Shown in pieces: positions 199 to 63,955 of a DNA stretch of 64,000 nt. The translations under genes and the position numbers were made by a program. The DNA lies in the IMG/VR virus record IMGVR_UViG_3300021400_000072; one strand, given 5' to 3'. The notes beneath the pieces are model-generated. The model was given only the letters and a program-made list of their open reading frames with translations. It did no database searches and was not told the origin of the DNA. Source of the stretch: a virus. Each line of letters opens with the position of its first letter. The first letter of the stretch is position 1.

Positions 199-276
199 TT
201 TAAGGGCAATTATTTATAATATTTATTTTTATATTTTTATTATAAAATAATGAGAAAAAAGGAGGTTTTGTTTAAA

Positions 277-3200
277 ATGGGCAGTGAACAATATTCAAAT
301 AGTCTTTTATAGGCTATGTCTATTATTGCTAACAAAGCCGTATCAGACGCTAGCTTTAATAAAACAATTCAAGCGGTGATAGTGGAATGTAAAGATGCGA
401 CGATAGAAAAATATCGTGTGCGCTACCAAGATGGATTTTGGGAAGCGTATGGAAATGGATCAGGAGTAACATATTTGCCAGGAACAAGTGTTTATATTTT
501 AGTTCCAAATGGAGACATGTCTCAACCTAAAACAATAATAGGCACAGTTTAGAAATTGGGAATCAATTATATTAATACTATTTCTGAATAGAATCAATAC
601 TATGAAAACGGAAATAATACTTTAATAAATAATATTGCTCAATTTGAATTATGCTCTTATTAGACACAGACAATTTAGATATATAATAGAAACAAAAAAG
701 AAAATAAAATTAATATAAATGAAGAAGAGACCGCTTTTTATTTACAAACTTCTTCTCATTTAAAATGCTCTTTTAATATAAAGACTTCTTTAGATTTGCA
801 TCAAAGATTTAACGGAAATTATGGAATAAGATTTTATTTAACTTTTTTAGATAGAGCAAGAGAAGAAGAAGTAATAAGATAGTATACGTTTGATACTTAT
901 TTAATGAGCGGAAATCCTTATCTTTTTACAAATAAAGTACCTCAATCTACAGTTTTTGAAATTGATGGTGCTAATTTTTTAAATATAGATAGAATAGAAC
1001 TTTTTACGGAAGGTTTTCCTAAGCAAGCGGAAGGGCATCACCCAGACATTTTTATCTCAAATCTTGCTATTGTTGGAGTAAATCAATTATCTGAATAGGA
1101 AATGAATGGAGTTTCTCTTTCTTTTGTTGCTAAAAAAGGATATATTTTTAATGATACTAGCAGTGATAATGATACTAGAGAAATTCAAGCTATCGTTAGA
1201 GTTCTTGGAAAAACTGTAAATGATACAATTTCTCAAAAGCTATCTTTTTATTGGTTTGTTCAAAATATAAGTATTTCTAAAAGTAGTCCGTTTTATAATA
1301 AATATGGTGGATATGGATGGAAATGTTTAAATCCTTATAAAATTTTAGAGAAAGATGAATATGGTAATATTACATTAGTAGATTTTAATTCAATGGGATC
1401 TATCTTTACTATTGCTAAAGAAGATGTTCAAATTAAATAGCAAAAATATAAATGCGTAGTATTATACGGGAACGAATCTTTTTCTAAAGAATTTACTATT
1501 ATCAATCATAGCGCAAGTTATGAAATATAGATAGAGTCTGACAAAGGAACATAGTTCGTTTTAGACTCTGGTTATCCTAATTTAAAATGTATATTAAAAC
1601 ATAAAGGAGAAGAAGTATCAGTATATAACAACTATGTATTCCATTGGGGAGTAATTAATAATAAAGGAGTTTTTAGTTCTTTACCTTAGACAAATAAATC
1701 ATATTAGGTATGGCACGAAGCAGAAGAAAGGGTTAATAATTTATAGAAACTTTTTAAAGATAATCAAATAATAAAAAATGGTACTTATAAAAATTAGAAT
1801 GGACAAGTAGTAACTAATGAAGAGGCTTATAATGAAGCTAAAGACATTTTATAGAAATATCGAAATACTGAGATAATCCATAGTAATTATATTTACCATG
1901 TTAATATTAAAAAAATTATTAATTTTAGCACTTTTGTTTGTACCGTGTCAGATATTAATTTAAATGTAATTGGATCAAAAGAAATTACTTTAATAAATGA
2001 TTTAACTTCTAACGGCGGGTACTCTTTAATTATTAATAATGGAAAACAGTCTTTTAATTATAATGAACAAGGAATTAGTCCTTGTAAAAATGAAAAAATT
2101 AATTATGTTATTCCAGAATTATCATTTACTCTATTAAACGAAAAAGGTTAGGAAGTAGATCAAAATGAAATTAAACCAGATAATATTAAATGGGTTTTCC
2201 CAGATAAAAATAATAGTCTTTTAATACATCGTGAAAGAGAAAACGAGTAGCGGATTCCGCAAACAGATTATACAATAATATATCCTAAAGCGAGAGTTTT
2301 TACTTATGAGATTTCAGATAAGTATTTTAGTAATAAAAATGATAATGATATAGAATTACGAGTTACATATAATGGATATACATTAACTGCAAAAACAGAT
2401 TTTCTATTTAGTAAATAGGGCTTTTTAGGAACGAATGGAACAGGAACTGTTTTAAGAATTATTCCGTTATTTAATGGAAATCCTATTGATGAACTACCCT
2501 ATTTTAAAATAAATAAAAATAAGAGTGATGATAATATCGTTTGTAATTTTAATGAATTAAAAGCATAGTTATATGAAAACGGATAGTAGGTTTTTGCAGA
2601 AAATGAATCATCTTATATTTGGAGTATTTTAAAACCAAAAGAAACAGATTTTAGTAATTTAAAATTAAAAGCACCTTCTCTTGGGCAAAGAATGTCAGTA
2701 AGTTTTATAGATACTCCTATTGTCAAATAGAAAAATAGTTCTATTTATAATATTGTTAAAGTTTCAGTATTATATAATAATAATAAAATTTATGCTACTC
2801 TTCCGATTATCGTTTATGAAATTTGTTCAACTGGTTATGATGAAGATATTTATGATTTAAAATTAGTTCCAAATACTGGTTTTCAATATGTATTTTATGC
2901 AGAAGATGGTACTAGACCGTAGTATGATAATAAAAATCCTTTTACTTTTAAACTTACTGAAACATCTGCTGAAAGAACTAACGGTAGAGAATAGGATATT
3001 ACAAAAATTCAATTACCAGATTTTGAGCATTCTTTTGAGTATTAGGTAGGAGGCAATTTAACAATTAGAAAAAATTCTGATGATAGCAATATTTGTGATT
3101 TAGTTCCGAATACTACTTATGATGGTTCTATATTAGATAATTATTTAATTTGTAAAGTTAATAAAATAAAACAAGGAGAATTCCCAACAACAGTTGCACA

Positions 3201-4932
3201 ATGCTTAATTCCTATTCATATGATGCTTAATCGTTATGGGCATGCCGCCTTGAATGATTGGGATGGTAATAGTATTAAAATAGACGAAGAATCTGGAGAT
3301 ACAATCTTAGCACCACAAGTTGGAGCAGGTTAGAAAGAGGAAAATGCTTTTACTGGTATTTTAATGGGAACTGTTCAAAGTGGTAACGATAAAAAGAATG
3401 GTTTATTTGGATATAAAAAAGGTGCTCGTACTATATTTTTAGACGCTACAAATGGTAGTGCAACCTTTGGTCAGGCTGGAACGGGTCAAATTAAAATTGA
3501 TGCTGAATCTGGAGTTATTACTGGTGGAAGTTATCCTTATGATGAAAAAACAAAAAAAGGCTCTGGAATGGAGATAAATTTAGGAGAAAATCCATCAATT
3601 ACTTTTGGTTCAAAGAAGTTTTATGTTACTCCTGCGGGTTAGTTATATGCACAAGACGGTGGACAGATTGCAGGATGGAATATTGAAAAAGATAAATTAA
3701 GTAAGGGTACTGTCGGTATAAGTTCTAATGATACTCCTATTAAAACTAAAAACACAACAATACCTAATTTTGCTTTTTGGGCAGGAGATAAAGATGCTTC
3801 AAAAGCACCTTTTAGTGTTAATTTTAAAGGTGATTTAAAATCTACTTCTATAAATATTGGTGAAGATGTATTTATTAAAAATGGTCAAATTTATAGTCTT
3901 GGAGTAGATGAAAAAGATAAAAAAGGAAATTTAATTAAAAATAAATTTGATATTGTAAATGGTCGTGTAAAACATTTATCAGGAAATAATGGATTTTTAT
4001 TGGATGGAAATGGTTTATCAATAGGAGACAAATTTGCAGTTTCTTCTGGTGGTTTTATGAGAGCAAAAAGTGGTTATATTGGAGATGATACGACAGGATT
4101 TTCTATAAATGCTGATTCAATTTCTAATGGTACTCAAGGAACAAAAAAGAGTGTTTATTTAGGAACAAATTTAATATCTTTAGGAGATACTTTTAAAGTA
4201 GATAATAATGGAGAATTAACAGCTTCTAAAGGGAAAATTGCAAATTGGTATTTTACAGATGGTGCTTTTTATGATGAAACAGTAAGGACTTCAGGTAAAA
4301 CTGATTATGGAGATTATGATAAAAAGCAAGGAAAATATACTTCTGTTTATAGTAATGGAGTGTATTTTGGTCAAGGTGGAATAAGATTTGGTTCTAATTT
4401 TCATGTAGGAAGTAATGGTTGGATGTATGCTACTGCTGGAACTATAGGTGGATGGGAGATTGGAAGTAATACATTAAAGAGTCATAATAAAGATGGTAAA
4501 TTAATTTTAAATAGTAATGGTTCTATGTCAGGTCCTGGATGGAGTATAGAATCTGGAGGAAAAGCTAACTTTAATAATATACATATTACTGGAGAAAAAA
4601 GCTCTATGAGTAATGGTACTATTGGAGGCGGTACTTCAATGAAGGGTGGAACTATTCATCCTGGTAGTGTTGGAGTACCTGGTGGTGGAAATTTAAATGA
4701 TTGGTGCAAAAATATTGTTGCTGAAAGTGTTACTGCTGATTATATTAAGGGTAAAATTTAGCATTTAGGTGAATTATATGTAAGAAAAATTAAATGTAAT
4801 GATATAAAAATGACAAAAAATGGAAGATAGTTTAATTTTGCTTCAGAAAGTTTTGTTAATGAAAGAATAGGAGATGCAACGAGATCTATTTGGGAAGCAA
4901 TAAGTGATATACGAGGAAAACTTCCAAAATAA
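277..4932 (+). CDS. Very large tail fibre / host-specificity protein (about 1551 aa) read through about 28 in-frame TAG codons
   Basis: ATG at 277 lies 8 nt after AAGGAGG. ORF-track pieces 316, 904, 1102, 1945, 3364 and 4000 are all in frame 1 and separated only by TAG; there is no TAA or TGA until 4930-4932. Fibre-like G/S/T/N-rich sequence with repeated GGW.I....L motifs. Confidence 0.8.
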
Positions 4933-5153: not shown

Positions 5154-5156
5154 CTT

Positions 5157-6845
5157 ATGAGTAGAATTACAAAATTGGCGAAAAAAGAAAACGGTGTCTT
5201 TCAAGAGCCAATTCCTATTGGAACTTCTTCTTAGTATGTTACTATTGACGATAATAAAACAATAACTTTAAAAGATATTATCGGTGATTATACAAAAATA
5301 CCAGAAGGGAAAATTTCGGAAGCAATAAAGGCCCTTGATGAAAAACAAGTAGAAATAGGGGATGCATCTGCAACAGAAAAAGGTCTTATGAGTTCTGTTG
5401 ATTTTAAAAAAATAAACCCTCAAATTTTAAGTAGAGAGACAGAAGATTTAAACGCAATTAAAACTCCTGGTTGGTATAGAATACTTTGTGATGAAAGCAG
5501 CGGCGTAATGCTTGTTAAAAATGTACCTAATTTTGTACAAGGAGGTTAGGATTCTTGTTGGTTAGAAGTACAACAAATAGATAATTTAACACTTTTCCAA
5601 AGATTAAGAACTTATTCAGGAGAGTATTTTGAAAGACAATATGACCCAAATACTTTATGGACAGCATGGAAACAAAAAGATGTTGTTATGAAGGGAGCTT
5701 ATCCCGCTGTCAAAGGTAGTGAAGGATTAGTTCCTGCTCCTGCGGCGGGAGATAACAATAGATTTTTAAAAGGTGACGGAACTTGGGCAATTCCTGCTAA
5801 TACTTGGGAATCTAATACAAGTTCTAGAGCGGGATATGTTGCAAGTCCTGCAGGCGCTGCTTCTAAAGTTTGGAAAACTGATGCAAGCGGAAACCCAGGT
5901 TGGAGAGATGAAAAAGATACTACTTATTCAAATATGGTAGGTGCGTCTGCGTCAGCGGCAGGTACAGCAGGATTAGTACCTGCTCCCGCAAGAGAGCAAC
6001 AGAATTATCTTCTTCAAGGTAATGGTACTTGGGTTGCTCCTAAAAAGACTGAAGGAGGGTCAACTTCAGGTTATTTATTATCTAGCACAGAACATGCAAA
6101 TTTAAAATCATTAACAAATAATTGGTCAAAATATTCTCTTGAATTACGGCCTCCGACTAATGCTAGTCACGGTGGTTTTATTGATTTTCATTATAATGGA
6201 AGCACAGCAGATCATACAGCAAGAATAATAGAAGATGAATCTGGTATTATTAAAATTGATGGAAAACTTGATGTAACAGGAACAAGTACAGTTAAATCTG
6301 TAACGGCTTCTGGAGCAGTGACAGTTAATGGTATTTTAAAAGCACAAAGTGCTCATAATGCAGAAAATGGTCATATTGTACCTGTCAGTTCTTCTTCTTC
6401 AAGAGGTATTACTTATATGTTTAATTCTTACCAATCTAATGTTTTAGATGTAACAGGCAGATGGGGGGCTACTTCTGGAGCATCTATTCGTCATATTGCA
6501 GCAAGTTCTTCTGATATTCGTTTAAAATAGAATATTAAATAGAATACTACTGGTGGATTGGAATTAATAAATAAAATTCCGTTATATGAATTTGATTGGA
6601 AAAATTCTGGTAAACATCAAAAAATTGGTTTTATTGCAGATGAATTAGAAAAAATAGACCCTAATTTAAGCATTGGAGATAAAACTTAGGATGAGAATGG
6701 TAATCCTATTTATAAAAGCGTAAATACTTTTTATTTACAAGGTTTTGAAATTAAAGCTATTCAAGAATTATCTCAACAAAATGATGAACTTAAAAAAGAA
6801 ATTAATCTTCTTAAAGAAGAAATTAAAGAATTAAAAAAGAAATAA
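5157..6845 (+). CDS. Tail fibre protein with tandem Phage_fiber_2-type repeats ([24 protein letters not shown], twice) and a C-terminal coiled coil; 5 in-frame TAG
   Basis: Continuous frame 0 from ATG 5157 to TAA 6843-6845, broken only by TAG. C-terminus ...[25 protein letters not shown]. Confidence 0.8.
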
Positions 6846-26025: not shown

Positions 26026-26688
26026 TTACTGATTAAACAAAATTAATTCTTCGGCATAAGGTAAAGTTTTCACCCAATTACAAAAGTCTTGACTCCATTC
26101 TGTAAGTTTATGATTTTTACGTTGTCCATACATATTTCGTAAAGTTTCATAATTAGCTGTCCAAGTTCTTTTTTGCAACCATCCCTCTGGAAGCCAACGG
26201 ATAAGTTCTTTCCAATATCTTTTATTTTTTGTTTCAAGATAACGTTTTCTAAGAGTTTCACATATATCAATGATATAATCTACACAATCTTCTATAGTAT
26301 CATCAATAGTATATGGTTCACCCTCAAAAAGAATTAAGTCTGAACTAAAGTCTCCCATTTCAAAACAATCTTTAGTAATAGGAGTACTAGCTAATTTATG
26401 CATGGTTGATGTTGAATTAGCAACCGTTGCTACTTTATAAGTATCAGCTTCCTTCCACCAATATAACGGTGCAGTTATATCAACAGAGACAAAGATTTGA
26501 CGAAGAAATTTTCTATCACTTGCGCCAGCTTTAATCATACGTTGCGCTAAATCTAAATCTTTTGGACCTATTTGCTCTGGAGAACCAGGAATATATACAC
26601 TGTCACTTTTTGCCCAACTTTCAAGAGGATTACGTAATCCTCTTAATGCACCTTCGAAATTCATTACTTTAGTATTCTAAAATTTCAT
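26026..26688 (-). CDS. Hypothetical protein (about 220 aa); 1 in-frame TAG near the N-terminus
   Basis: MKF-Q-NTKVMNFEGALRGLRNP... Start overlaps the GIY-YIG stop (TAATG). Confidence 0.4.
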
Positions 26689-27023
26689 TATTTATTACCT
26701 TTCGTTACATTTAAACCAACTTTGTTTGATTGATACATCTAAATCCAAAACCGTTCTTTTTCATTTAACTTATCACGAGTACATTTCTAAAGAATTTCAA
26801 AAGTAAAATTCCATACTCCATATTTTTGCATATTATTATAAAGTTTATTCGTTGCGGAAGCATCTATACCAAGACCACATTTTACATGCTGTTTCCATCT
26901 ATCGGCAATATTTACACTTTGTCCAATGTAAATATCTCCAGTTTGTTTATTAGTAATTTTATAGATTCCACAAACTGATCCAGAACCTAATACACGATTG
27001 CATAAATCAGTAGTAGGTTTCAT
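26689..27023 (-). CDS. GIY-YIG homing endonuclease catalytic domain (about 111 aa from the ATG at 27023); 2 in-frame TAG
   Basis: SVCGIYKITNKQTGDIYIGQSVNIADRWKQH...EKERFWI. Confidence 0.85.
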
Positions 27024-27029
27024 TATAAA

Positions 27030-27644
27030 AGTAGACCAAATGACTTTAGAAACAATAGAAGGGTCATTAAGTTCCTTTTTCCATTCTTGAAGATGTGTAA
27101 TATCGTTAATCTATTTTTCAGATATTTTTATACGATAAAAAGATATTTTATCCTATTCTTCTTGCTACCTAAGACGTGCGGCGGTCGCAGCCTAATATAC
27201 AGATTTAAGCTAGGCCAAACTCGATTGAATCTAATTCCGCTATCTCTATATTTTACCTATCTATTGATATAATTGAGATTTCATTTCTATCTACTCTTGA
27301 CGAATAGACTAATGAAAGTCCTAACGATGTTTTATTCGTTGTTCTTCATAGTTTTGCTCTATTTGCTATAGTTCGTCTTGACGAGTTTTTTTTCTAGTGT
27401 CTAATATAGTTTGTTCCTATTGTTGTAATTGTTTCAACTATAAAAGTTTATTTTGTTTATTAATAATCTACTGATTTAAATTAGATATTTTAATCTATTT
27501 GCTTCTTATCTATATTTTTATATTCTATTTTTCTTTTTCTAATGTTATTTCTTGCTATTTTAATTGCCGCACCTTATTAAATAAATAATAAGCAAATATA
27601 AGCACTATAAAAAAGAAAATTATTAAAACTGCTCGTCCTATCAT
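27030..27644 (-). CDS. Membrane-anchored Gln/Lys-rich coiled-coil protein with 22 in-frame TAG; in frame with the downstream GIY-YIG domain, with no TAA/TGA between them
   Basis: Hand translation: MIGRAVLIIFFFIVLIFAYYLF (TM helix), then QLKQ QEITLEKEKQ NIKIQ IRSKQ...; frame is open from 27644 to 26689. Confidence 0.5.
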
Positions 27645-27653
27645 TATATTAAA

Positions 27654-27683
27654 GAACGGGTTAAGTATAAAAACTTAACCCGT
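27654..27683 (-). terminator. Perfect 12-bp hairpin, 10 nt upstream of the ATG at 27644
   Basis: aacgggttaagt ttttat acttaacccgtt. Confidence 0.5.
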
Positions 27684-53855: not shown

Positions 53856-56375
53856 ATGGCACAAATTACATATGGTTCAATAACATTAGTTGACCTTACT
53901 GATGTTGGGCAATTATCTGTATATCCTACAAGTAATATGCCTTTATCAATTATATATGACCCAGATCAAAATAGTTATACTCCTAACTGGGGAACTTCTA
54001 CAACAAATTTGATTTTAACGCCTGTTATTTATTATAATAATACTGTTTTAACAGCGACTACTTCAGGAGTAACTATTACATGGCGAAGACGAGAAGGGTC
54101 TGGAAATATAACAGCTTTAACCACAGGTGAAGCAAAACAATCTAATGGTTCATTAAAAGTAAATACTAATAAATTTACTTCTACTTCAACTATGATTAGT
54201 TATATAGTTACCGTGGAATATGTAGAACCAGAAACTCAAAGAACGTTAACAGCAGAAGGACAAATTACATTTAGTCTTGTAAAATTAGCATCTTCTGCAA
54301 AAACTTGTATTATTTCTGGTGATACAGTATTTAAATATAATACAAGCGGTACTTTAATTAGTGATTCAGTTATTACTTTGACTGCAAAAACAAACAATGT
54401 TTCTATTCAAGAATGGCAATATAAAGATGTTAATGGAGACTGGACAAAGGTTACTGGCTCGGGTACAGGAGAAACATTGATAATTAATGCATCTGATAAT
54501 TATCTATTTGTAAATGATGTTGCAACTATTCAAGTAATTACAGATGATACAAATGTTTATGATATTCATTGTATTACAAAACTTAGAGATGGCGCTCCTG
54601 GCGATAAAGCAGTAACCGCGGTTTTAACAAATGAAAACCAAATGATTCCTTGTAATTCTTCTGGTACACCTGTTTCGGGCGCTTTTAATGGAGCTACTTC
54701 TCAAATTATTATTTATAATGGTGGTGTAGATGATACTGCAAATTGGACTATTGCAAGTACAGCAACTGATGTTATTATAACTAGATCAACTACTACAAAA
54801 GCAAATGATACAGTTACGGTAACTGGATTAAGTGCATTAACTGGAAAAGTAACTTTTACATGTACACGGGCAGGTTATGATGATATTATTAAAGTATTTT
54901 CTTTAGTAAAAGTAACTGCAGGTGCTAATGGTACAACACCTACTATTTATTCTTTAGAGTGTGATTCAATAGCCATTAATAAAACTACACCAAGTGATGG
55001 AAGTGCTGTAACTTATACTCCATCTTCAATTGAAATTAGAGGATATAGTCAAACAGGAAATAATGCAAGAGCATCCTATGCAGGACGCTTTAAAATTACA
55101 TCTGGTTCTACAGCTATTTATACTTCAACTGCCAATGAATCTTCTTATACAATTACATCAAGTAATATAGCTTCTGCGGCAGCTAATGGACACATGATTG
55201 TAGAATTATATAAAGCGGGTGGTACAACAACTCTTCTTGATAAACAAACTATAGTTATTACTGCTGATGGCGCTAGGGGACAACAAGGACAGCAAGGACA
55301 AGCTGGTGCAGACGCTATTAATGTAGTTATGGGAAATTATGCAGATGTAATTCCTTGTACAACAGCAAATAAACCCCAAGCTGCTTTTACTATTGATATT
55401 CCTTTTGTTGGTTATAAAGGTACAACTCAAGTGACATGTACTGTAGCTACTCCAGCAGCGATTTGTGGCGTAAGTCCTACAGTTACACAAGCTACTGATA
55501 AAGCAGTAGGACATATAAAATATGCTTTAACTACAAGTACAGATATGAGCAGTACTTCTTCTGGTACTGTAACATTTACTTTTACTTGTGGAGGCAAACA
55601 AATTACTCAAAATTATACTTGGACACGTAGCACAGCTGCAACCAACGGAGTAAATGCTAAATTATTTGAATTATATACTGTTGGTGGTGATGTATTTACA
55701 AGTAGAGAGTCACAAGATATTACTATTATAGGTCGTTTAATGGACGGTTCACAAGATAAAACATCTTCTGCTACTAATTGGACATGGGCTAAATGGCAAG
55801 ATGGTGCTTATACTACTTTATCTACTACAACAGGTAAATATACAGTCAATGGTTCACAATTGACTGTTAATAATTCTGCTGTTGAAGGATTTGCATCATT
55901 TAGAGCTACATGTTCATATAGTAGTGTTACATATACAGCATATTATTCATTAATAGATAGACTTGATCCAATTCAAGCGGTAGCTTTTTGTTCTTTAGGT
56001 GAACAGATTGTTAATGGGCAAGGAATTGGCGCATTTTATGTTATTGTTACTGACACTGGCACTGGACAAGAGTTAGATGCTTTGAAATCTGATAGATTTT
56101 TAACTTCTGCTCCAGCTAATCCTGCTACTGGTGATTTTTATTATTACTTAAATACTACTAATAAAACTGTTACATTAAAAAAATATACTGGTAGCGCTTG
56201 GGCTGATGCGGGAAGCGGAGATTTACCTAAAGGCACTTATACTTGGACATTTAGAGATAGTTCTGGAAATGCAACAACATTTAATGGTTCTACAGAAGCT
56301 ACAGGTAAAGTAATTTATGTAGATGGTACATTAGTATCAAAGAAAATAATTGCCGATGTAAAGGTCGAAATTTGA
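53856..56375 (+). CDS. Tail fibre protein with Ig-like repeats and a short collagen-like stretch, about 840 aa; no TAG
   Basis: GAAAGGA RBS. GARGQQGQQGQAGAD Gly-X-Y run. Repetitive T/S/G-rich beta modules. Confidence 0.75.
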   Translation: MAQITYGSITLVDLTDVGQLSVYPTSNMPLSIIYDPDQNSYTPNWGTSTTNLILTPVIYYNNTVLTATTSGVTITWRRREGSGNITALTTGEAKQSNGSLKVNTNKFTSTSTMISYIVTVEYVEPETQRTLTAEGQITFSLVKLASSAKTCIISGDTVFKYNTSGTLISDSVITLTAKTNNVSIQEWQYKDVNGDWTKVTGSGTGETLIINASDNYLFVNDVATIQVITDDTNVYDIHCITKLRDGAPGDKAVTAVLTNENQMIPCNSSGTPVSGAFNGATSQIIIYNGGVDDTANWTIASTATDVIITRSTTTKANDTVTVTGLSALTGKVTFTCTRAGYDDIIKVFSLVKVTAGANGTTPTIYSLECDSIAINKTTPSDGSAVTYTPSSIEIRGYSQTGNNARASYAGRFKITSGSTAIYTSTANESSYTITSSNIASAAANGHMIVELYKAGGTTTLLDKQTIVITADGARGQQGQQGQAGADAINVVMGNYADVIPCTTANKPQAAFTIDIPFVGYKGTTQVTCTVATPAAICGVSPTVTQATDKAVGHIKYALTTSTDMSSTSSGTVTFTFTCGGKQITQNYTWTRSTAATNGVNAKLFELYTVGGDVFTSRESQDITIIGRLMDGSQDKTSSATNWTWAKWQDGAYTTLSTTTGKYTVNGSQLTVNNSAVEGFASFRATCSYSSVTYTAYYSLIDRLDPIQAVAFCSLGEQIVNGQGIGAFYVIVTDTGTGQELDALKSDRFLTSAPANPATGDFYYYLNTTNKTVTLKKYTGSAWADAGSGDLPKGTYTWTFRDSSGNATTFNGSTEATGKVIYVDGTLVSKKIIADVKVEI

Positions 56376-56420
56376 TAGTTGTATTAGTATTAAAAAATGC
56401 TGATACAACTATCAGCATTT
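56375..56420 (+). promoter_or_regulatory. Two mutually exclusive hairpins between the two fibre genes (attenuator-like)
   Basis: gatagttgtat ...18 nt... atacaactatc, versus local gctgata caac tatcagc followed by ATTTTAT. Confidence 0.35.
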
Positions 56421-56442
56421 TATGGAAGAAAGGGATAATTAT

Positions 56443-59400
56443 ATGATAACTTATGGTTCAACAACTCTTACTTCTTATAATACTATAACAAAAATAGAAG
56501 TATATTATTATAAATCAACAAGTGCCACGAGTCTAAGCGGAGGTTCGTGGTCTACTACAAAACCTACTTGGGAAAATGGTAAATATATTTGGCAAAAAAT
56601 AAAAACAACTTATGAAGGTAAACTTGAAAACGGACAATATTATTCTGAATCTGATCCTGTTAATATTACAGGACAACAAGGCGCAACAGGTACTGCCGCG
56701 TATTCGTATAAATTAAACTCTTCTGATACTGCTATAACAGTATCTAAGACAGGAGAATACTCCGTTAATAAAATTACATTTACCGCAACATATAAGCAAG
56801 GTACTGGAGCAGTCACCGCTTATGCAGGTAGATTTAAAATAGAAACAACAGCTAATGGAACTACTTGGACAACACAGTATACATCAAGCGGAAACGAATC
56901 TTCTAAAGAATATACAATTCCTGAAGATATTATATCTATTAGATGCTCATTATATCAATCAGGTGGTACGAGCACTTTACTCGATATTGTTACAATTCCT
57001 GTTGTTAAGGATGGTATTGACGCTGTTGGTTTAAGAGATAGTATTCCATATTATTTAGCATCGGACAAACAAACTGGGGTTACAAGATTGGATCAGGGTT
57101 GGACACGATTTAAGCCTGAACTAACTACAGAAAAAAGATATTTATGGGTTTATTATGTTTCAAGATATAGTGAAGGAGATACGCAGCCTGAATTAATTGA
57201 AATTAAAAATGATATTGTGAGTTTTGAAAATCATGGTGATGAATCTCCTGTTGAGAATTGTGTAATTGATATTGAACCTGTGCAGGATTTACATGGATAT
57301 GACAGCCCTTGGCCTGCAGGGGGTGGAGTGAATCTTGCCGAGAATGTGTCGCTTTCACTTAGCGACCTGCGTGGCATAACTGTAAACACCGCAGATGATG
57401 GAACTATTACCATTAATGGCACATCCGAAGGCACCAGCTTCATTCGAGGATATTTTCATTGCCCGGACCAGACAGCAACATACACGTGGGCGGTTTTCAA
57501 TGCGGCTGCTTCGACCGATTTGGAGTTCTCTGTAAGGAATTCTCGCTATAATCCTGCTGGGGGCTGGGCTCCGTTAAGAAGCGCTAATATGACGCTTACG
57601 TTTACAATTAACTCGGGAGAAACGGCGGTCTATTGGCAGTTTCAAGTAAAGAATGGTGCTACCATTAACAATGCGACATTGAAACCCATGATTGTTTCTG
57701 GTTCCACCGCTCCCACCTCCTACTCTCCCTACTCTAACATCTGCCCCATCACCGGATGGACAGGGTGTGAGGTGCAGAGGACGGGAAAGAACCTTGCCAA
57801 CGCAAAATTCAGAATAAAAGTGCCATCTATAACCAACGGACAGATGGTAAATGTAAGTGGATGGAGTACAGAGTATATCAAGGTTGATAATTCTAAAACA
57901 TATTGTGTTTCAGTCGGTAATAGCTCAACATCATATCTATTTTATTATGACTCCAACTTAGCTTTTATCGGTAGCAGACAGTTCAGTGTGAGTACAAGAA
58001 TTGGTGCAGAGTCATATTTCAGTAGAACGTCATATATTAAATTGAGAAATGATGCCGCAGAAAACAATGATCCGCATATTCAACTCGAACTCGGTTCCAC
58101 CGCAACTGACTACGAACCCTACACCGGACAAACCTACCCCATCACCTTCCCTTCCGAAGCAGGAACAGTCTACGGCGGCGTGCTGGACGTTACCAATGGC
58201 GTGCTGACGGTGGATAGGACGATGGTGGATTTGGGGACGTTGGATTGGAGAAAAGCTGTTACTGCTTGGACTACGTTTTATTCCGCAAACATTAAGAACC
58301 TTATCAGAAAATATGCCGATAAAATATACACAGGCGGTATTTGCTCTGTATATGCAACCGATGAGTCTAAAATTACTTCAAACGGTGATAACTATATCTA
58401 TGGGAGCACAACCGGGGAGTTGCGTGTGAAAGACACTTCAAAAGCTGATTTAAGCACATCCGAATTTAAAACCGCAATGGACGGCGTGCAATTCTGCTAC
58501 GAACTTGCAGAACCCATCCACTACCCTCTCACACCAATCGAGATCACATCCCTGCTCGGAGAGAACAATCTGTGGGCGGATACGGGTCAAACATCTGTCA
58601 CATACTATGATAACGAAAAATCAACTGATCCATATGTGGATTATTCTGCAACATCAGCGTTTGAATATTCTGTAAAAGCATATGAAGCAACGCAACCTTT
58701 ATATACAAACACTTATTCAGAATTGATTGGTTCTGCTAATGATGTGGCAGGAGCATCTTTTTATTTTGCAAAGATTCATCCTGACAGTTATATAACTAAT
58801 TATAAGGTTAAAATGAAAGTGCGTGTTATTGAGCCAGAATCATATGCAGAAACAATTGATATTCAATTTGGTGGTTATGGTAGTACTTTTAGTAGTTATG
58901 ATGCTTATACTACTCGTACAGGAAGTATAGGTATTTATTATATAAATCTTTATAGAGCGACTAAAGCGGGGATTGAAACTAATCATAAAGGTCATGCCTT
59001 AGGAATCGGATTAAGGTATGCAACAAATCCTATTAACATAGATTATAAAAGAACAGTTATTGTAGATATATTAGAATTAGATGGGTGTACCATTGAAATG
59101 TTTGATACTGCTGTTAAATATGCAGATATAGATGGTACTGGAAGTACTAATTATTCTGGCATTACAGAAATGGCAGTCGCAACAGTAGGTCAAAATGCTA
59201 CCAATAATACTAATACTAATTATACACAATATGCCAATGCTGTTAAAGCGGGTGTTTTTGGTGTTAAAAGGTATACATTATTAATGAAAGATAGTGAAAA
59301 TACTTGGTCATCTTTTATTAATCAAGCAAATTCTACTGCTACTACTAAAACAGTTTGTCAAGGTGGATTTTTATTAGGTAAATTATTATATTCAGCAGGT

Positions 59401-62400
59401 GGTGCAGAATATGCTTCTGGAGCAAATACGTCTACTGTTTATGATGCTTATCCTTTTGATTTTAGATATTCAACTAATTGTGGACAAACCCTTATTTCAC
59501 ATCAACCCGTTTACTTAGTAGGAACTATTGAGAATGATGGATTATTTCATTTAGATGTTAGTCAATGGTATACACAAACAGAACCGACTTACGCAGATGG
59601 AAAAGTGTATATATACGTAGGTATGGCATATAGTACTTATCAAGTATGGTTAAGTACAGAGAATCCTGCTTATATGTTTTATAATGGTGAATTTATTTTA
59701 TATGATAAAGCGCAAACATTACAAAATATAAATAGTTTAAAAAATTCTTTAGAAACACAAATCGACAATAAAGTTGAAACATGGTGTCAAAAAACCAATC
59801 CTGCAAGTAATTGGACTGCGGAAGAGAGACCGAATCATACTGGTGATCTTTGGTATTATATTGGTGAATCTGGTACCACTTATAAAAATAATACAACTTA
59901 TCAATATAATGGTGAAACTAATGTATGGTCTGCATATTCAGCTAATCCTGATTTGTTCGATAAAATTGATGGTAAGAGTGCTATTTATTATGGAACAACG
60001 AGTAGCGTGACTTCTGCTGAAGAAGGAGATTATTTAGTAGATTCAGAAAATGATTGTACTTATAGGTGGAATAATGGTGCTTGGATATTAGCTACTGATT
60101 ATAAGCAAGTCGCTATTGATGCTATTGAAATTGGTGGAAGGAATCTTTTATTAAATACTGGTGGTAATGATGCGATAAAAGTAACAACAATATCTTCTCC
60201 AAAGTCTCAAATATATAATATAAATTATAGTATGGAAAATGGAGAAATTCATTTTACTTCAGTAGCAACAACAGCAGAACGATATTATCGTTTTGTTACT
60301 CCAGCAAAAGAAAATCTTTGGGGAATAGAACCCGGTGAAACATACACTATTAGTTTTTATACAAAAGGAACTATTGATGCAAATGATAATGTTGGTTATA
60401 GAAGCCAATATACAATTGGTACTGGGAACTGGCTTACTATTTCAGACAATCGTTTTAAAGAAAAAGTAGGATCTGATTATCAAAAAGTATTTTTTACTGA
60501 AACAATTCCTTCAAACGCATCTTCATACTTTTTCTCAATTCAAATTTATGGAAGTAATGCAAGTGATTTTTATATAAAAAATTTAAAATTTGAAAAAGGA
60601 AACAAATCTACCGATTGGACACCAGCACCAGAAGATGTAGAAGAATCAATTAAAGCATACGCAGAATCTATTCAATCTCAAGTAGACGGTATGGCAGAAA
60701 TACATTATGGTATAGCTGTACCTACATTAAGTAATGCACCAGCTTCCGCATGGACAGATACTGCCACAAGAGATATGCATGTAGATGATTTATATTATAA
60801 TACATCAACTGGCTATTGCTATAGATTTATTAAGTCAGGCTCTACATATTCTTGGAGTAGAATTAAAGATAGTGATATTACAGCAGCAGCTACTGCTGCT
60901 GGTAATGCTCAAACGACAGCGAATAATGCCAATACATTAGCAGGACAAAAACGTAGAATATTCGTAAGTCAACCTACACCTCCTTATGAAGTTGGAGATT
61001 TATGGGTAGAAGGATCAAGCGGCGACATTAAGAAATGTAAGACCGCAAGAGCATCAGGAAGTTATACTGCGAGTGATTGGGAATTAGCTTCTAAGTATAC
61101 TGATGATACAACCGCTAATGAAGTAAATGATAAAATAGATAATCTGGAGATAGGTGGCAGGAATTTATTATTAAATACGAACAATTTTAGTTTGCATAAG
61201 TATGCTAACAGTTCTGGTGGAGGCACTTGGACTTTTAGTGGTGATGAAGCTACTTATACAGCGACTGCTAAAAGTTGGGCACGTTTAGATTTAAGTTATA
61301 ATCCTGATATGCCATCAGCAGATATTTCAAGTCAACCCAATATGGATTTATTAGGAGATACTACTATTACACTTTCAATTGAAGCAAAATGTGAAGGTGA
61401 GTGTAATGGTAGTTTATATCTTCAACAAATTATTTATGGAAATAATAATAACAGAAAATATTATCCTCTTACTAATCCAACTGCTGATTGTAGAAACACT
61501 TTTGTTTTAACAGAAAATTGGCAACGATATAGTGTAACAATTCCTGCAGATTATACAAATACAACATATTGGACTTCTGATTCAACGCAATTGTCCTATC
61601 CCAATACTGGGTTTGGAGCAACAATATATTGGAGTTCTACAGGAACGGTTCATGTCAGAAAGCCCAAACTTGAACGTGGGCAAAAGGCGACAGACTGGTC
61701 TCCCGCTCCTGAAGATGTGGAAACTGACATTAACGAGGCGGCCAAGACAGCCAATAACTACCTCTCTTCTGACAACACCGGCATCATGGTCGCTAACATG
61801 ACGGACGGGAACACTTACACCCCGAGTACTGTGCCCAGCGGAACAAAGAATACCTTTATTGACGAGGATAGTTTTCAGGTGCGAGACGGACAGGAGACTT
61901 TGGCATCGTTTGGTACCACTATAGTTATCGGTAAGAGTGGTACGAATAACTTGCGGGCAAAAATAGGATCTGGAAATTTTCAGATTATTGATAATAGTGA
62001 CAATGTACTTGTTAATATCGGCCGTGTGCCTGCTACAGCAGGAGAGGCGAAAAAGGTTCATTACGAATTCGGTCCACAGCAAAGCGGTACTCCATCTGGC
62101 AATTATTCATTCGCGCAGGGAACATATAATGCTGCTGTTTTTGATAATCAGGTTGTTATAGGCCAATATGGCAGATACGGGTATAGGTTTAATTATTCAG
62201 CTTCTGTAAGTTCTAATTCACCGACTTTTACAATCAACGTCAGCACTTATGTGGCAATGGGATTTACGGAAAACGATATAAATATAGAAATCCCCGGTTG
62301 TGATTATACATGGGTGCTTAATGATGGAACCATTACAGTTACAATAATAGGAGAAGGTATATACTGGAGCTTAAAACCTCTGGTCTATGTCAGAATTGGA

Positions 62401-62577
62401 AAAGATATTGCTTTTGCAGTCGGTAATGGAACGGAAAACTCACGATCTGATGCATTTGAAGTGACCTGGGATGGTAATGCAAGGATGGCACTTGATGAAA
62501 CAGCAACCACCGGCACAGACGCGGAGCTATACAGTGCCATTACCGCCCTCGGATGGGAAAGTGAGGTGATTGTATGA
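56443..62577 (+). CDS. Giant tail fibre / receptor-binding protein, about 2044 aa; no TAG; mosaic GC
   Basis: ORF 56422..62577 is intact. The more likely start is ATG 56443, after a GAAAGGGA RBS. Internal duplicated module boundaries (IGGRNLLLNT, TDWTPAPEDVE). GC-rich patches. Confidence 0.8.
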   Translation: MITYGSTTLTSYNTITKIEVYYYKSTSATSLSGGSWSTTKPTWENGKYIWQKIKTTYEGKLENGQYYSESDPVNITGQQGATGTAAYSYKLNSSDTAITVSKTGEYSVNKITFTATYKQGTGAVTAYAGRFKIETTANGTTWTTQYTSSGNESSKEYTIPEDIISIRCSLYQSGGTSTLLDIVTIPVVKDGIDAVGLRDSIPYYLASDKQTGVTRLDQGWTRFKPELTTEKRYLWVYYVSRYSEGDTQPELIEIKNDIVSFENHGDESPVENCVIDIEPVQDLHGYDSPWPAGGGVNLAENVSLSLSDLRGITVNTADDGTITINGTSEGTSFIRGYFHCPDQTATYTWAVFNAAASTDLEFSVRNSRYNPAGGWAPLRSANMTLTFTINSGETAVYWQFQVKNGATINNATLKPMIVSGSTAPTSYSPYSNICPITGWTGCEVQRTGKNLANAKFRIKVPSITNGQMVNVSGWSTEYIKVDNSKTYCVSVGNSSTSYLFYYDSNLAFIGSRQFSVSTRIGAESYFSRTSYIKLRNDAAENNDPHIQLELGSTATDYEPYTGQTYPITFPSEAGTVYGGVLDVTNGVLTVDRTMVDLGTLDWRKAVTAWTTFYSANIKNLIRKYADKIYTGGICSVYATDESKITSNGDNYIYGSTTGELRVKDTSKADLSTSEFKTAMDGVQFCYELAEPIHYPLTPIEITSLLGENNLWADTGQTSVTYYDNEKSTDPYVDYSATSAFEYSVKAYEATQPLYTNTYSELIGSANDVAGASFYFAKIHPDSYITNYKVKMKVRVIEPESYAETIDIQFGGYGSTFSSYDAYTTRTGSIGIYYINLYRATKAGIETNHKGHALGIGLRYATNPINIDYKRTVIVDILELDGCTIEMFDTAVKYADIDGTGSTNYSGITEMAVATVGQNATNNTNTNYTQYANAVKAGVFGVKRYTLLMKDSENTWSSFINQANSTATTKTVCQGGFLLGKLLYSAGGAEYASGANTSTVYDAYPFDFRYSTNCGQTLISHQPVYLVGTIENDGLFHLDVSQWYTQTEPTYADGKVYIYVGMAYSTYQVWLSTENPAYMFYNGEFILYDKAQTLQNINSLKNSLETQIDNKVETWCQKTNPASNWTAEERPNHTGDLWYYIGESGTTYKNNTTYQYNGETNVWSAYSANPDLFDKIDGKSAIYYGTTSSVTSAEEGDYLVDSENDCTYRWNNGAWILATDYKQVAIDAIEIGGRNLLLNTGGNDAIKVTTISSPKSQIYNINYSMENGEIHFTSVATTAERYYRFVTPAKENLWGIEPGETYTISFYTKGTIDANDNVGYRSQYTIGTGNWLTISDNRFKEKVGSDYQKVFFTETIPSNASSYFFSIQIYGSNASDFYIKNLKFEKGNKSTDWTPAPEDVEESIKAYAESIQSQVDGMAEIHYGIAVPTLSNAPASAWTDTATRDMHVDDLYYNTSTGYCYRFIKSGSTYSWSRIKDSDITAAATAAGNAQTTANNANTLAGQKRRIFVSQPTPPYEVGDLWVEGSSGDIKKCKTARASGSYTASDWELASKYTDDTTANEVNDKIDNLEIGGRNLLLNTNNFSLHKYANSSGGGTWTFSGDEATYTATAKSWARLDLSYNPDMPSADISSQPNMDLLGDTTITLSIEAKCEGECNGSLYLQQIIYGNNNNRKYYPLTNPTADCRNTFVLTENWQRYSVTIPADYTNTTYWTSDSTQLSYPNTGFGATIYWSSTGTVHVRKPKLERGQKATDWSPAPEDVETDINEAAKTANNYLSSDNTGIMVANMTDGNTYTPSTVPSGTKNTFIDEDSFQVRDGQETLASFGTTIVIGKSGTNNLRAKIGSGNFQIIDNSDNVLVNIGRVPATAGEAKKVHYEFGPQQSGTPSGNYSFAQGTYNAAVFDNQVVIGQYGRYGYRFNYSASVSSNSPTFTINVSTYVAMGFTENDINIEIPGCDYTWVLNDGTITVTIIGEGIYWSLKPLVYVRIGKDIAFAVGNGTENSRSDAFEVTWDGNARMALDETATTGTDAELYSAITALGWESEVIV

Positions 62578-63164
62578 TCAATATGAAAAAATTGCTTACG
62601 AAGATTTTGCAGGCACTTGGTAATACGGTAAGTAAAACCGGCGATACCATGACAGGAGATTTGCAGATCACGAGAGACGGCATAACGAGCTGTGTAAGAG
62701 TGACAAGTCTTAACGGTAACACAACCGTTGCAGATGGATAGCTTAGTGCAAATACGAGTGGAAATTTTGGTCTTTATGACCAAATTCATGACAAATGGTT
62801 AATCAGAAGTAATAAAAGTGCTAAAGAAATACTTTTTGGTATGCCATTACATATATCTACTATTTATAATACTAAACTTACTGCTCCATCTGCACAAAAT
62901 ACATGGGCAGAAGCCTCTGTTCCAAATATTGCAAACTATAATATTATTCTTATGCGTTGTGAATGTTTTAATTGTCGTCAGTTACTTGTTTTTTGCCGAA
63001 ATTTTGGAACAGGAGCACTGTATTTAACCGATAATGCAAGTACCTATGTAAGAGGTGGATACAGAATTGACTGGACAAATAATAAAGTAGGAGTGCAATG
63101 GTTAAATGGAACTACTACAACTGCTAGCACAGTATATATCCAACAAGTATATGGAATAGTATAA
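62574..63164 (+). CDS. Tail fibre tip protein, about 196 aa; 1 in-frame TAG
   Basis: ATGA overlap with the previous stop. KTGDTMTGDLQI fibre motif. ORF 62841.. is the in-frame C-terminal piece. Confidence 0.6.
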
Positions 63165-63182
63165 AAGAAATGAGGTGATATA

Positions 63183-63935
63183 ATGTTAACTCCAAAACAA
63201 TTATTAGTAATCATGTATCAATTCAGAGGCGCTAATGCAAAAAAAAATGTAAAAAAGACATATAATGATTATGCAGAAAAACATAAAAAATCTAAGGTAT
63301 CAAGTAATTCTGCGTGGTGTTCTGAAACAATTGCGGCCTCTTTTATTAAAGCAGGTGCTCTTGGACTTATTGGCGGTCTTGCCAGACAATCAGATACTTT
63401 TGTAAAACATTTTAAAGCAATAGGCATTTGGAAAGCAGGACATGACAGGATTCCTAAAGTAGGTGACATTCTTATTCGTGGTAAAAACAATGACCCTTAT
63501 CACAGTGAAGTTGTGTTTTCGGTTGATGAAAAGAAAGGTACGCTTAAAGCAGTTTCTGGCAATTATCTTGGAAATGTCGGTATTAGAACTAGAAACATTC
63601 ATGACAAACTTACTTATGGATATGGAAGTCCCAAATATGACGCTTATAAAACTGTGACTCCTTCTATCGTACAAAAAGTAATGATGGGGTTATATGGCAA
63701 GGGTGCTACTATCGGTACTGCCAGATATAACAAACTTGCACTTGAAGGTTATGATCCTGATGCTGTACAAGCTAAAATTAATTGGGTTGTTAATACAGCA
63801 CAAGCTATTAAAGACGGTAAAGAATGGGCTAAGGAGCATTATGGGAATGATGAAAAACGTAAAAAGGCACTTGGTTCTTGGTACCCTATAGTACAAAAAC
63901 AAATCAATGTATTATACGGAATTGATAAATGGTAA
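63183..63935 (+). CDS. CHAP-domain peptidoglycan hydrolase (tail-associated lysin), 250 aa
   Basis: AWCSETIAASF (Cys), GDILIRG...YHSEVVF (His). Located in the tail module. Confidence 0.7.
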   Translation: MLTPKQLLVIMYQFRGANAKKNVKKTYNDYAEKHKKSKVSSNSAWCSETIAASFIKAGALGLIGGLARQSDTFVKHFKAIGIWKAGHDRIPKVGDILIRGKNNDPYHSEVVFSVDEKKGTLKAVSGNYLGNVGIRTRNIHDKLTYGYGSPKYDAYKTVTPSIVQKVMMGLYGKGATIGTARYNKLALEGYDPDAVQAKINWVVNTAQAIKDGKEWAKEHYGNDEKRKKALGSWYPIVQKQINVLYGIDKW

Positions 63936-63955
63936 TTAAATGAGGTGAATAAACA

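Follow-up and report, generated by a model that had tools for sequence, protein, structure and literature searches.

A TAG-free fiber cassette in a TAG-recoded phage

The stretch of DNA analyzed here (the window) comprises 64,000 nucleotides (nt) of IMG/VR virus record IMGVR_UViG_3300021400_000072. Near its right end it carries a block of fiber and lysin genes with a single in-frame TAG codon (the island), directly downstream of tail genes in which in-frame TAG codons are frequent. On the + strand, tail genes T1 to T6 are followed by two large fiber genes (F1 and F2), a small tip gene, a lysin gene and the start of a collagen-like fiber gene (Table 1). Per-gene counts were made on stop-to-stop open reading frames (ORFs) of the + strand with TAG read as sense. 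A first-pass annotation, made from the letters of the window alone, had described the two fiber genes and the lysin gene as lacking TAG and the tip gene as having one, and the counts confirmed this, with matching coordinates and sizes. It had also described every upstream structural gene as TAG-bearing, which holds for T1 to T4 and T6 and fails for T5.

Table 1. Tail genes and island features of the window. TAG, number of in-frame TAG codons; Glu, glutamate; GC3, GC content at third codon positions; L007 and L100, loci of related phages.
Feature	Coordinates	Strand	TAG	Description
T1	44360-47257	+	18	
T2	47247-49352	+	20	
T3	49362-50102	+	5	
T4	50112-52625	+	14	
T5	52630-52926	+	0	98 aa
T6	53014-53835	+	6	273 aa; last TAG at 53722; last TAG-bearing tail gene, left edge of the island
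F1	53856-56375	+	0	839-aa tail or fiber protein; 20 Glu codons; GC3, 0.107
F1-F2 spacer inverted repeat	56372-56415	+		Near-perfect 20-bp stem that fills the spacer; without a clear U-tract
F2	56422-62577	+	0	2044-2051 aa, depending on the start chosen; 107 Glu codons
F2 N-terminal anchor	56422-56957	+		~178 aa, conserved; L100 similarity breakpoint at 3' end
F2 distal part	56958-62577	+	0	~1,870 aa, mosaic; GC3, ~0.25
F2 L007-like segment	58489-60144	+		94.6% nt identity to L007
Tip gene	62574-63164	+	1	196 aa; start overlaps F2 stop; TAG at 62739-62741
Lysin	63183-63935	+	0	250 aa
Next island gene (start)	63955-64000	+		474-aa collagen-like fiber protein; runs past the window end

The window has a GC content of ~0.30. 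Long ORFs cover 51,078 nt of it under the standard code and 71,829 nt when TAG is read as sense; with TGA as sense instead, they cover 63 kb. Full-length products of NrdD (5 TAG), a RecJ-like DHH protein (11), DnaB (3), an AAA_24 protein (4), a GIY-YIG protein (22), a GH25-CHAP-GW lysin (7) and all large tail genes of the + strand are obtained only with TAG as sense. Among genes of replication type, those for the DNA polymerase III alpha subunit, a helicase, a ligase, two topoisomerase subunits and an RNA ligase have no TAG. With in-frame TAG in conserved genes and coding density restored when TAG is sense, the phage is TAG-recoded.

At 39% identity, the window polymerase matches YorL of Bacillus phage SPbeta as well as polymerases of Enterococcus phages, and related contigs measure 113 to 157 kb; the phage is best taken as SPbeta-like and large (about 130 to 145 kb), with a host among the Bacillota of the rumen or gut. 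That the host belongs to this phylum is probable, since the phage lysins carry CW_7 and GW wall-binding domains and since the sole matches in genome collections were contigs binned with a Bacillota metagenome-assembled genome (MAG) and with a rumen 'Clostridiales' MAG. The host presumably uses the standard code. A megablast search with positions 44 to 64 kb of the window against 50,697 GenBank phages gave no match. Related phages are referred to below by locus numbers (L-numbers), of which L001 to L010 and L012 come from an IMG/VR search with F1.

In alignments TAG behaves as Glu (see below), so expected TAG counts were based on Glu codons rather than glutamine (Gln) codons. Genes T1 to T6 together contain 63 TAG, 148 GAA and 33 GAG, giving a TAG share of 25.8%. 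At this share 35.9 TAG are expected among the 139 Glu-class codons of the island within the window, and one is found (P = 5e-17). An ENA scaffold, ERZ28612966 scaffold_493, matches the window exactly (0 mismatches over 10,818 nt) and extends the TAG-free stretch through six further genes (474, 488, 134, 224, 80 and 91 aa; GC, 0.40 to 0.48), two of them collagen-like fiber genes and four of them small. The island ends on this scaffold at window-equivalent position ~68,696, beyond which TAG-bearing genes appear again. Over its whole length (~14.9 kb; 4,827 codons) it has one TAG in 245 Glu-class codons, with 63 expected (P = 1e-30). The TAG depletion of the island is therefore real and beyond chance.

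An origin of the depletion in chance or amino acid composition, with too few codons of the residue for which TAG stands, can for practical purposes be dismissed. The F1, tip and lysin proteins are indeed poor in Glu (2.4, 1.5 and 3.1%), and each of these genes alone is weakly significant; zero TAG in F1 is only moderately so (0.74^20, about 0.002) because the gene has just 20 Glu codons. However, F2, with its 107 Glu codons, is the main carrier of the signal, and the pooled probabilities refute this explanation. The first-pass annotation had named a low Gln content as the finding that would overturn its reading. Reckoned by Gln codons (47 TAG expected within the window; P = 3e-25) or by all codons (70 expected), the depletion is just as extreme, but with TAG behaving as Glu that test was misplaced.

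F1 and F2 match PHROG families of the types 'tail protein', 'host range and adsorption' and 'PblB-type receptor binding', while neither Pfam nor PDB sequence searches with the two proteins returned a match. They are called fibers because of the 'tail protein' matches and their synteny. A tblastn search with F2 gave matches at the level of domains only, to tail proteins of Bacillus, Staphylococcus and Eggerthella phages. The downstream 474-aa and 134-aa proteins have collagen repeats and many 'tail fiber' PHROG matches.

The 250-aa lysin is predicted to carry one CW_7 repeat (Pfam PF08230; E = 1e-11; residues 162 to 200), the cell-wall-binding repeat of Cpl-7 type endolysins, here as a single copy; it also matches PDB entry 5i8l, annotated as a lysozyme (E = 5e-15). 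Pfam gave no CHAP match in this protein at E ≤ 0.01. Its residues 15 to 166 nevertheless align with the CHAP-bearing region of the GH25-CHAP-GW lysin of the window (E = 1e-12; 27% identity), and both proteins keep a Cys (AWCSET/DYCDTT) and a His (YHSEV/ADHIG). A single-sequence AlphaFold model was unusable (predicted local distance difference test score, 38). The protein is 59% identical to its homologue in the standard-code phage L003. In the first pass it had been labeled a CHAP tail lysin. The N-terminal domain is indeed related to the CHAP region of the other lysin, with a CW_7 repeat in addition, but no sign of a tail-borne state was found, its position among fiber genes being the only pointer to a virion-borne enzyme. 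The phage thus has two lysins, one TAG-free and one TAG-rich, the latter (GH25, CHAP and GW domains; 7 in-frame TAG) encoded at 35949-37466 on the - strand; in relatives an r1t-type holin gene lies near it.

Hypervariability and shared alleles at the cassette locus

The closest recoded relative, L100, shares 94 to 97% nt identity with the window across T1 to T6 and F1. Up to position 56,957, ~178 codons into F2, the nt identity is 92 to 95%; there the similarity ends, and the remainder of the L100 F2 gene is unrelated; the N-terminal anchor of F2 up to this breakpoint lies in a 92% nt alignment with L100 that begins upstream. The inverted repeat in the F1-F2 spacer is found ~540 nt upstream of the breakpoint and could be an attenuator, an RNA-processing site or a mere structural feature. 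Further relatives with the same T1 to T5 genes have other content between T5/T6 and a conserved downstream block. In L104 this interval encodes just one protein, of 866 aa and with a SASA domain; L108 and L013 have a ~580-aa fiber with 8 to 9 TAG, and L014 has an F2-like 834-aa gene with 6 TAG that directly follows T6. The cassette locus is hypervariable, and its content differs even between close relatives. The downstream block of the window genome is 95 to 98% identical to that of L009 (window-equivalent 68.4 to 70.4 kb; L016:15239-17170), yet the T1 to T4 proteins of the two are only 43 to 67% identical; the backbone itself is therefore mosaic.

The IMG/VR search with F1 returned two kinds of locus. 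In the first (L009, L010 and L012), F1 stands on the recoded backbone, with TAG-rich homologues of T1 to T6. In the second (L001 to L008), it is preceded by a different tail module that encodes proteins of 1,900 to 3,100 aa, ~270 aa and ~1,030 aa; the last of these (1020 to 1040 aa) has the C-terminal domain of T6 in common. The tail genes flanking F1 in L001 are not homologous to T1 to T4 and have no coding TAG. Throughout L001 to L008, coverage does not change when code 11 is replaced by a code with TAG as sense, each TAG that falls inside a long ORF sits upstream of a ribosome-binding site and start codon, and no coding TAG is found in more than 6,000 codons per locus. When L003 and L006 were extended upstream, the long ORFs of two genes were found to end at TAG 6 to 21 codons before the next TAA or TGA, so these are real TAG stops; the same lineage has a 3,106-codon gene without a coding TAG. 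The backbones of L001 and L007 are of the L003/L006 type, with 80 to 82% aa identity to each other and 57 to 60% to L003.

Window F1 is 89.4% identical to the L001 allele at the protein level (82.6% nt identity) and 80 to 85% identical to those of L002 to L005, all of which stand on TAG-free backbones. Identities to alleles on recoded backbones are 96% (L100), 81% (L101), 74% (L106) and 67% (L009). F1 is thus closer to L001, on a foreign TAG-free backbone, than to three of the four relatives that share the recoded T1 to T4 backbone, the exception being L100. In a neighbor-joining tree of F1, recoded alleles occupy three separate places among the alleles of TAG-free backbones: the window and L100 group with L001, L101 stands alone, and L106 and L009 fall in the clade of L007.

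Other parts of the island have such partners too. The 82.6% nt identity to L001 covers positions 53601 to 57254, and ~290 aa at the N terminus of F2 are 60 to 64% identical to L001 and L014. The segment of F2 that matches L007 (Table 1), a locus whose tail genes are TAG-free, is the most recently shared piece. Further right, window-equivalent positions 63925 to 67059 share 80% nt identity with L002. These junctions recur in independent assemblies (ENA, Logan, JGI and IMG/VR). The first-pass annotation had proposed donors in which TAG is not a sense codon and had suggested database matches of single domains as a check. Its core idea is supported by the F1 alleles on the TAG-free backbones of L001 to L005, by the TAG stops of L003 and L006, by the matches of F1 and of the F2 segment to L001 and L007, respectively, and by the loss of similarity to L100 at 56,957.

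A comparison of codon usage, also proposed in the first pass, divides the island. GC3 is 0.09 to 0.17 in the backbone, 0.107 in F1, 0.25 in the distal part of F2 (1,873 codons) and 0.34 to 0.53 in the last island genes. Relative synonymous codon usage in the distal part of F2, the lysin gene and the 474-aa gene is nearer to that of the TAG-free lineage than to the backbone, while that of F1 is nearer the backbone. Deviation from the backbone in codon usage or composition is thus seen in the distal part of F2, the tip gene, the lysin gene and the downstream genes but not in F1. The differing composition of its parts indicates that the island is a patchwork of ages and not a single insert. Of the recent acquisition that had been suggested, the foreign composition of the distal part of F2 and of the downstream genes is what remains; there was no single recent event, F1 having diverged together with the backbone.

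Probable exchange across codes and competing explanations

The island is probably a host-recognition cassette that has been exchanged across genetic codes, with alleles repeatedly drawn from a pool common to standard-code phages. Repeated allele exchange at a hypervariable locus describes it better than one acquisition. The cassette would consist of the two large fiber proteins, the tip protein, an accessory wall-binding lysin and the collagen-like fibers beyond the window, set between a conserved baseplate module (T1 to T6) and the conserved downstream block. Alleles would pass between co-infecting phages by homologous recombination at conserved anchors, the candidates being the C terminus of T6 with the N terminus of F1, the first ~180 residues of F2 and the downstream block. 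Incoming alleles would have evolved under the standard code, where an in-frame TAG is lethal. After entry, a synonymous gain of TAG could occur only by a G-to-T change in GAG, which makes up ~18% of GAA plus GAG. As GAA to TAA creates a stop and GAG is rare, TAG would rise more slowly than third-position composition changes; TAG density would therefore lag behind that composition and could give a rough measure of how long an allele has been resident. The difference in code would act as a one-way valve, in which TAG-free genes pass both ways and TAG-bearing ones cannot return to standard-code phages. Since alleles that have gained TAG would be non-functional there, gene flow would be asymmetric.

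The reverse course, in which the cassette is native to the recoded lineage and was exported to standard-code phages, with only TAG-free alleles being exportable, is quite unlikely. It draws on the backbone-like codon usage of F1 in the window phage and on the F1 tree, which alone gives no direction. However, it leaves unexplained why alleles within the recoded lineage are TAG-free, and the distal part of F2, the lysin gene and the downstream genes are nearer to the TAG-free lineage in codon usage, with a GC3 above that of any backbone gene. Moreover, F1-bearing TAG-free backbones (L001 to L008) outnumber recoded ones in the sampled loci.

A somewhat stronger competitor, although still improbable, is selection that keeps TAG out of the cassette, either because the fibers or lysin are made when or where suppression is absent or inefficient or because truncated subunits of trimeric fibers are harmful. 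Published work reports recoded stops enriched or depleted by gene class (bioRxiv 10.1101/2021.08.26.457843), and the F2-type genes of L100 and L101 are TAG-free too. F1 is TAG-poor in all five recoded alleles (0, 1, 1, 1 and 0 TAG in ~112 Glu codons) despite its backbone-like codon usage and co-divergence with the backbone. The single TAGs of L100, L101 and L106, however, stand in three different columns and arose independently; the column of the L101 TAG otherwise holds E in 11 sequences and D in two. At the same locus, fiber genes with 6 to 9 TAG are found in L014, L013 and L108, and elsewhere in the window phage a 1,561-aa tail protein, an S74-chaperone fiber, T1 and T2 carry 29, 5, 18 and 20 TAG. 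TAG is therefore tolerated in such proteins and is accumulating in fiber genes.

The arrangement of the genes bears on the same explanation. The start of F1 follows the stop of the TAG-rich T6 by 20 nt, the start of the tip gene overlaps the stop of F2, and a scan for promoter and terminator motifs gave counts equal to those in shuffled sequence, the sole notable element being the 20-bp hairpin in the F1-F2 spacer. A separate expression class, which the first-pass annotation had offered as its alternative, is thus not supported. Selection would also leave the common alleles, the breakpoint and the foreign codon usage unexplained. Two further ideas were rejected: an early gene class for the island, which lies on the same strand as and directly 3' of the TAG-rich late tail genes, and a general avoidance of TAG in long genes, given the 29 TAG of the 1,561-aa gene.

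Several points weigh against repeated exchange from a standard-code pool. F1 does not look recent. Its codon usage and GC3 are backbone-like, and it has diverged from L100 and L101 in step with the backbone, so that it appears to have been resident in a recoded backbone for some time. At similar synonymous divergence T1 to T4 turned over most of their TAGs, and F1 gained few; by our estimate, the F1 genes of the window and L101 have at most 1 TAG observed versus ~6 expected (P ~0.01). The deficit points either to replacements of F1 from the TAG-free pool that are more numerous than the sampled loci suggest or to mild selection against TAG in this gene. The partner sequences are all metagenomic contigs, and chimeric assembly at a hypervariable locus is conceivable. 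TAG stops directly demonstrate the standard code for the L003/L006 lineage; for L001 and L007 it rests on the absence of TAG among the Glu codons of each locus (more than 300), those of tail genes outside the cassette included. The direction of each transfer is something that we infer, as are the recombination mechanism and the slow kinetics of TAG accumulation.

Four genes outside the main tail module and the island stand out in TAG content or codon usage. The gene for the 1,561-aa tail-type protein lies at the far left of the window (220-4932, + strand) and is followed by that for the fiber (562 aa; 5154-6845, + strand) whose Peptidase_S74 domain is an intramolecular chaperone; both are distant from the main tail module. 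The protein with the GIY-YIG nuclease domain (26688-27674, - strand) has its 22 TAG in an N-terminal coiled-coil region, and at ~7% of codons its TAG content is the maximum for the window. An 834-aa protein with major vault protein (MVP) shoulder and repeat domains (Pfam E = 4e-21) is encoded at 41124-43637 on the - strand by a gene with 0 TAG and a GC content of 0.385, in which CAG (26) prevails over CAA (1), opposite to the rest of the genome. At least L014 among the relatives has this protein, conserved at ~84%, and equally large MVP-domain genes occupy that position in L100 to L108.

Decoding of TAG and relation to known systems

The residue inserted at TAG was approached by alignment. In codon alignments of T1 to T6 among recoded relatives, TAG that is paired with another codon faces E in 33%, D in 11%, N in 7% and Q in 7%, a profile that fits true Glu columns and not Gln columns (log-likelihood gap, >400). 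Window TAGs compared with 19 standard-code relatives in the polymerase region face E in 50%, D in 10%, K in 7% and Q in <4%, with the log-likelihood best for E by >200. For the TAGs of 12 recoded loci (n = 2013 aligned residues), E accounts for 45% and Q for 4%; reference columns of true E hold 55% E and those of true Q hold 42 to 50% Q. A TAG-free homologue of a 169-aa gene with 7 TAG has E, E, K, Q, E and D at the six TAG positions that align, and swaps of TAG between close relatives are mostly with GAA or GAG. Among 120 database homologues of T2, many TAG columns hold only E and Q, as would be expected if the database had translated TAG as Q under code 15; true-E columns of these homologues have 18% Q, and true-Q columns only 5% E. 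The five TAGs of NrdD align with K, E, K, W and T in structures 4coi and 4u3e and are uninformative on decoding. From these alignments, TAG appears to mean Glu in the window lineage, which does not seem to follow genetic code 15 (TAG as Gln).

No tRNA gene was found in the 64-kb window or in scans of ~75 related loci. The tRNA arrays of relatives lie just beyond a 501-aa DUF2828 gene, and tRNA(CUA) genes were identified there in recoded relatives (L149:4633-4706, L114:4320-4396 and L117:1789-1864; beyond the right end of the window). L149, with 90% nt identity to the downstream block of the window genome, has the tRNA(CUA) sequence CGCCCGATAGTGGAATGGTTAAACACGACGGTCTCTAAAACCGTAGAATCTCGGTTCGACCCCGAGTCGGGTGA. 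Arrays of 16 to 22 tRNA genes adjoin the DUF2828/DUF7788 gene, and in them tRNA(CUA) immediately precedes tRNA-Ser(GCU). A tRNA-Glu(UUC) gene is present in standard-code L118, L119 and L146 but absent from the arrays observed in recoded L114 and L149; a tmRNA-like gene is an additional feature of L117 and L138. The label 'tRNA-Pyl' given by ARAGORN to CUA tRNAs was rejected, as their D-loops have the normal form, including G18G19.

The tRNA(CUA) genes of L149 and L117 have C1-G72, G2.U71 and A73, as does phage tRNA-Glu(UUC) of L126 and L118; in L114 the first pair varies with the choice of register. Common to the three are U11-A24 and a D-loop of 9 nt, one base longer than that of phage tRNA-Gln genes, and by reading of the sequences a Gln-type D-arm is seen in the CUA tRNAs of more distantly related phages. 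The L149 tRNA is mixed: its acceptor stem and the length of its D-loop are Glu-like, whereas its variable loop of 5 nt and its G12-C23 pair are untypical of tRNA-Glu. Nearest-neighbor typing of whole tRNA sequences, which is noisy and discriminates weakly, placed Glu among the top identities for L114, L117 and L149 and gave Gln or Trp for other phages.

Many Bacillota lack a glutaminyl-tRNA synthetase and use a non-discriminating glutamyl-tRNA synthetase (GluRS) together with the amidotransferase GatCAB. Bacterial GatCAB distinguishes Glu-tRNAGln from Glu-tRNAGlu by U1-A72 and rejects the extra D-loop base of tRNA-Glu (PMC2811023). A host GluRS of this kind would charge a phage tRNA(CUA) with tRNA-Glu-like features, and GatCAB, which needs U1-A72 and would be blocked by the extra D-loop base, would reject it; the Glu-tRNA would be kept and Glu inserted at TAG.

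Relatives in the polymerase region (loci L018 to L097; polymerases 56 to 93% identical) have ORF coverage that fits the standard code, TAG as sense or TGA as sense, depending on the member, and three codes are therefore present in one family. One relative is probably TGA-recoded, because coverage of its polymerase region (L075; IMGVR_UViG_3300028832_000101, the contig of L015) is 0.91 with TGA as sense versus 0.85. In the same contig the T2 homologue falls into three ORFs when TGA is a stop (L015:10103-12844). It is very likely that this SPbeta-like lineage, related to or within the 'Agate'-type phages of rumen and gut Bacillota, reads TAG as Glu by means of a tRNA-Glu-like tRNA(CUA) charged by GluRS and rejected by GatCAB, with the fiber cassette recording gene flow across three codes and TAG density acting as a residence clock.

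Recoded gut and rumen phages (crAss-like and Lak phages and the Agate, Garnet and further clades of Borges et al.; 'genetic code 15') likewise have in-frame TAG in many genes, a gain in coverage when TAG is sense and some genes left compatible with the standard code, and a suppressor tRNA(CUA) is found here in relatives. Standard-code, TAG-recoded and TGA-recoded members have been reported for Agate phages, the same mix as in the family of the window phage. Here, however, TAG aligns with Glu instead of Gln and is not confined to late genes, given its presence in NrdD, the RecJ-like gene and DnaB. In the Borges model the TAG-free class is early or replicative, whereas the TAG-free block of the window is, by its gene order, a late structural fiber cassette that follows late tail genes. 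The literature searched described only TAG-to-Gln and TGA-to-Trp or TGA-to-Gly reassignment in phages and no use of TAG as Glu in a phage or bacterium, an absence that is no proof of novelty. In the nuclear code of peritrich ciliates, which is eukaryotic and genome-wide, UAA and UAG both stand for Glu; apart from it, no code that assigns UAG to Glu is known to us. The ciliate code differs in that UAA is also reassigned, while TAA stays a stop in the window phage.

The cassette resembles known tail-fiber mosaicism of phages in its conserved N-terminal anchors with variable distal parts, in a breakpoint just past an anchor, in unrelated cassettes at one locus and in alleles common to different backbones. 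It differs in that the exchange crosses a code boundary, with the recoded codon absent and flow asymmetric. As in the amelioration of acquired genes, foreign segments keep donor-like codon usage and the older F1 is recipient-like at third positions; the marker here is instead the gain of a reassigned codon, which lags behind GC3 because only GAG mutates synonymously to TAG. In recoded Escherichia coli, an unassigned or reassigned UAG is reported to obstruct horizontal transfer (PMC6207430). The two cases are alike in that a code difference limits which genes function after transfer, and they differ in that the present system is natural and its barrier one-directional, passed by TAG-free genes and not by TAG-bearing ones. 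The island is thus a new variant of two known things, phage fiber mosaicism and stop-codon recoding, and the reading of TAG as Glu is apparently more novel than the island itself.

If TAG does stand for Glu, prodigal-gv, geNomad, Pharokka-gv and IMG/VR ('code 15') place Gln for Glu at ~2% of residues in TAG-rich genes, in a large phage family that is widespread in the rumen and gut. The charge of these residues would be changed, and structure prediction and function calls may suffer; the public protein database would already show the misassignment as columns of only E and Q. A Glu-inserting amber suppressor that works through the GluRS and GatCAB of Bacillota would represent a new way in which stop codons are reassigned in nature and a candidate orthogonal tRNA for engineering. 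For the phages themselves, a recoded codon would leave a readable trace of gene movement, by which the ages of modules could be ranked within one genome, and the barrier between codes would be leaky and one-directional, not a complete firewall.

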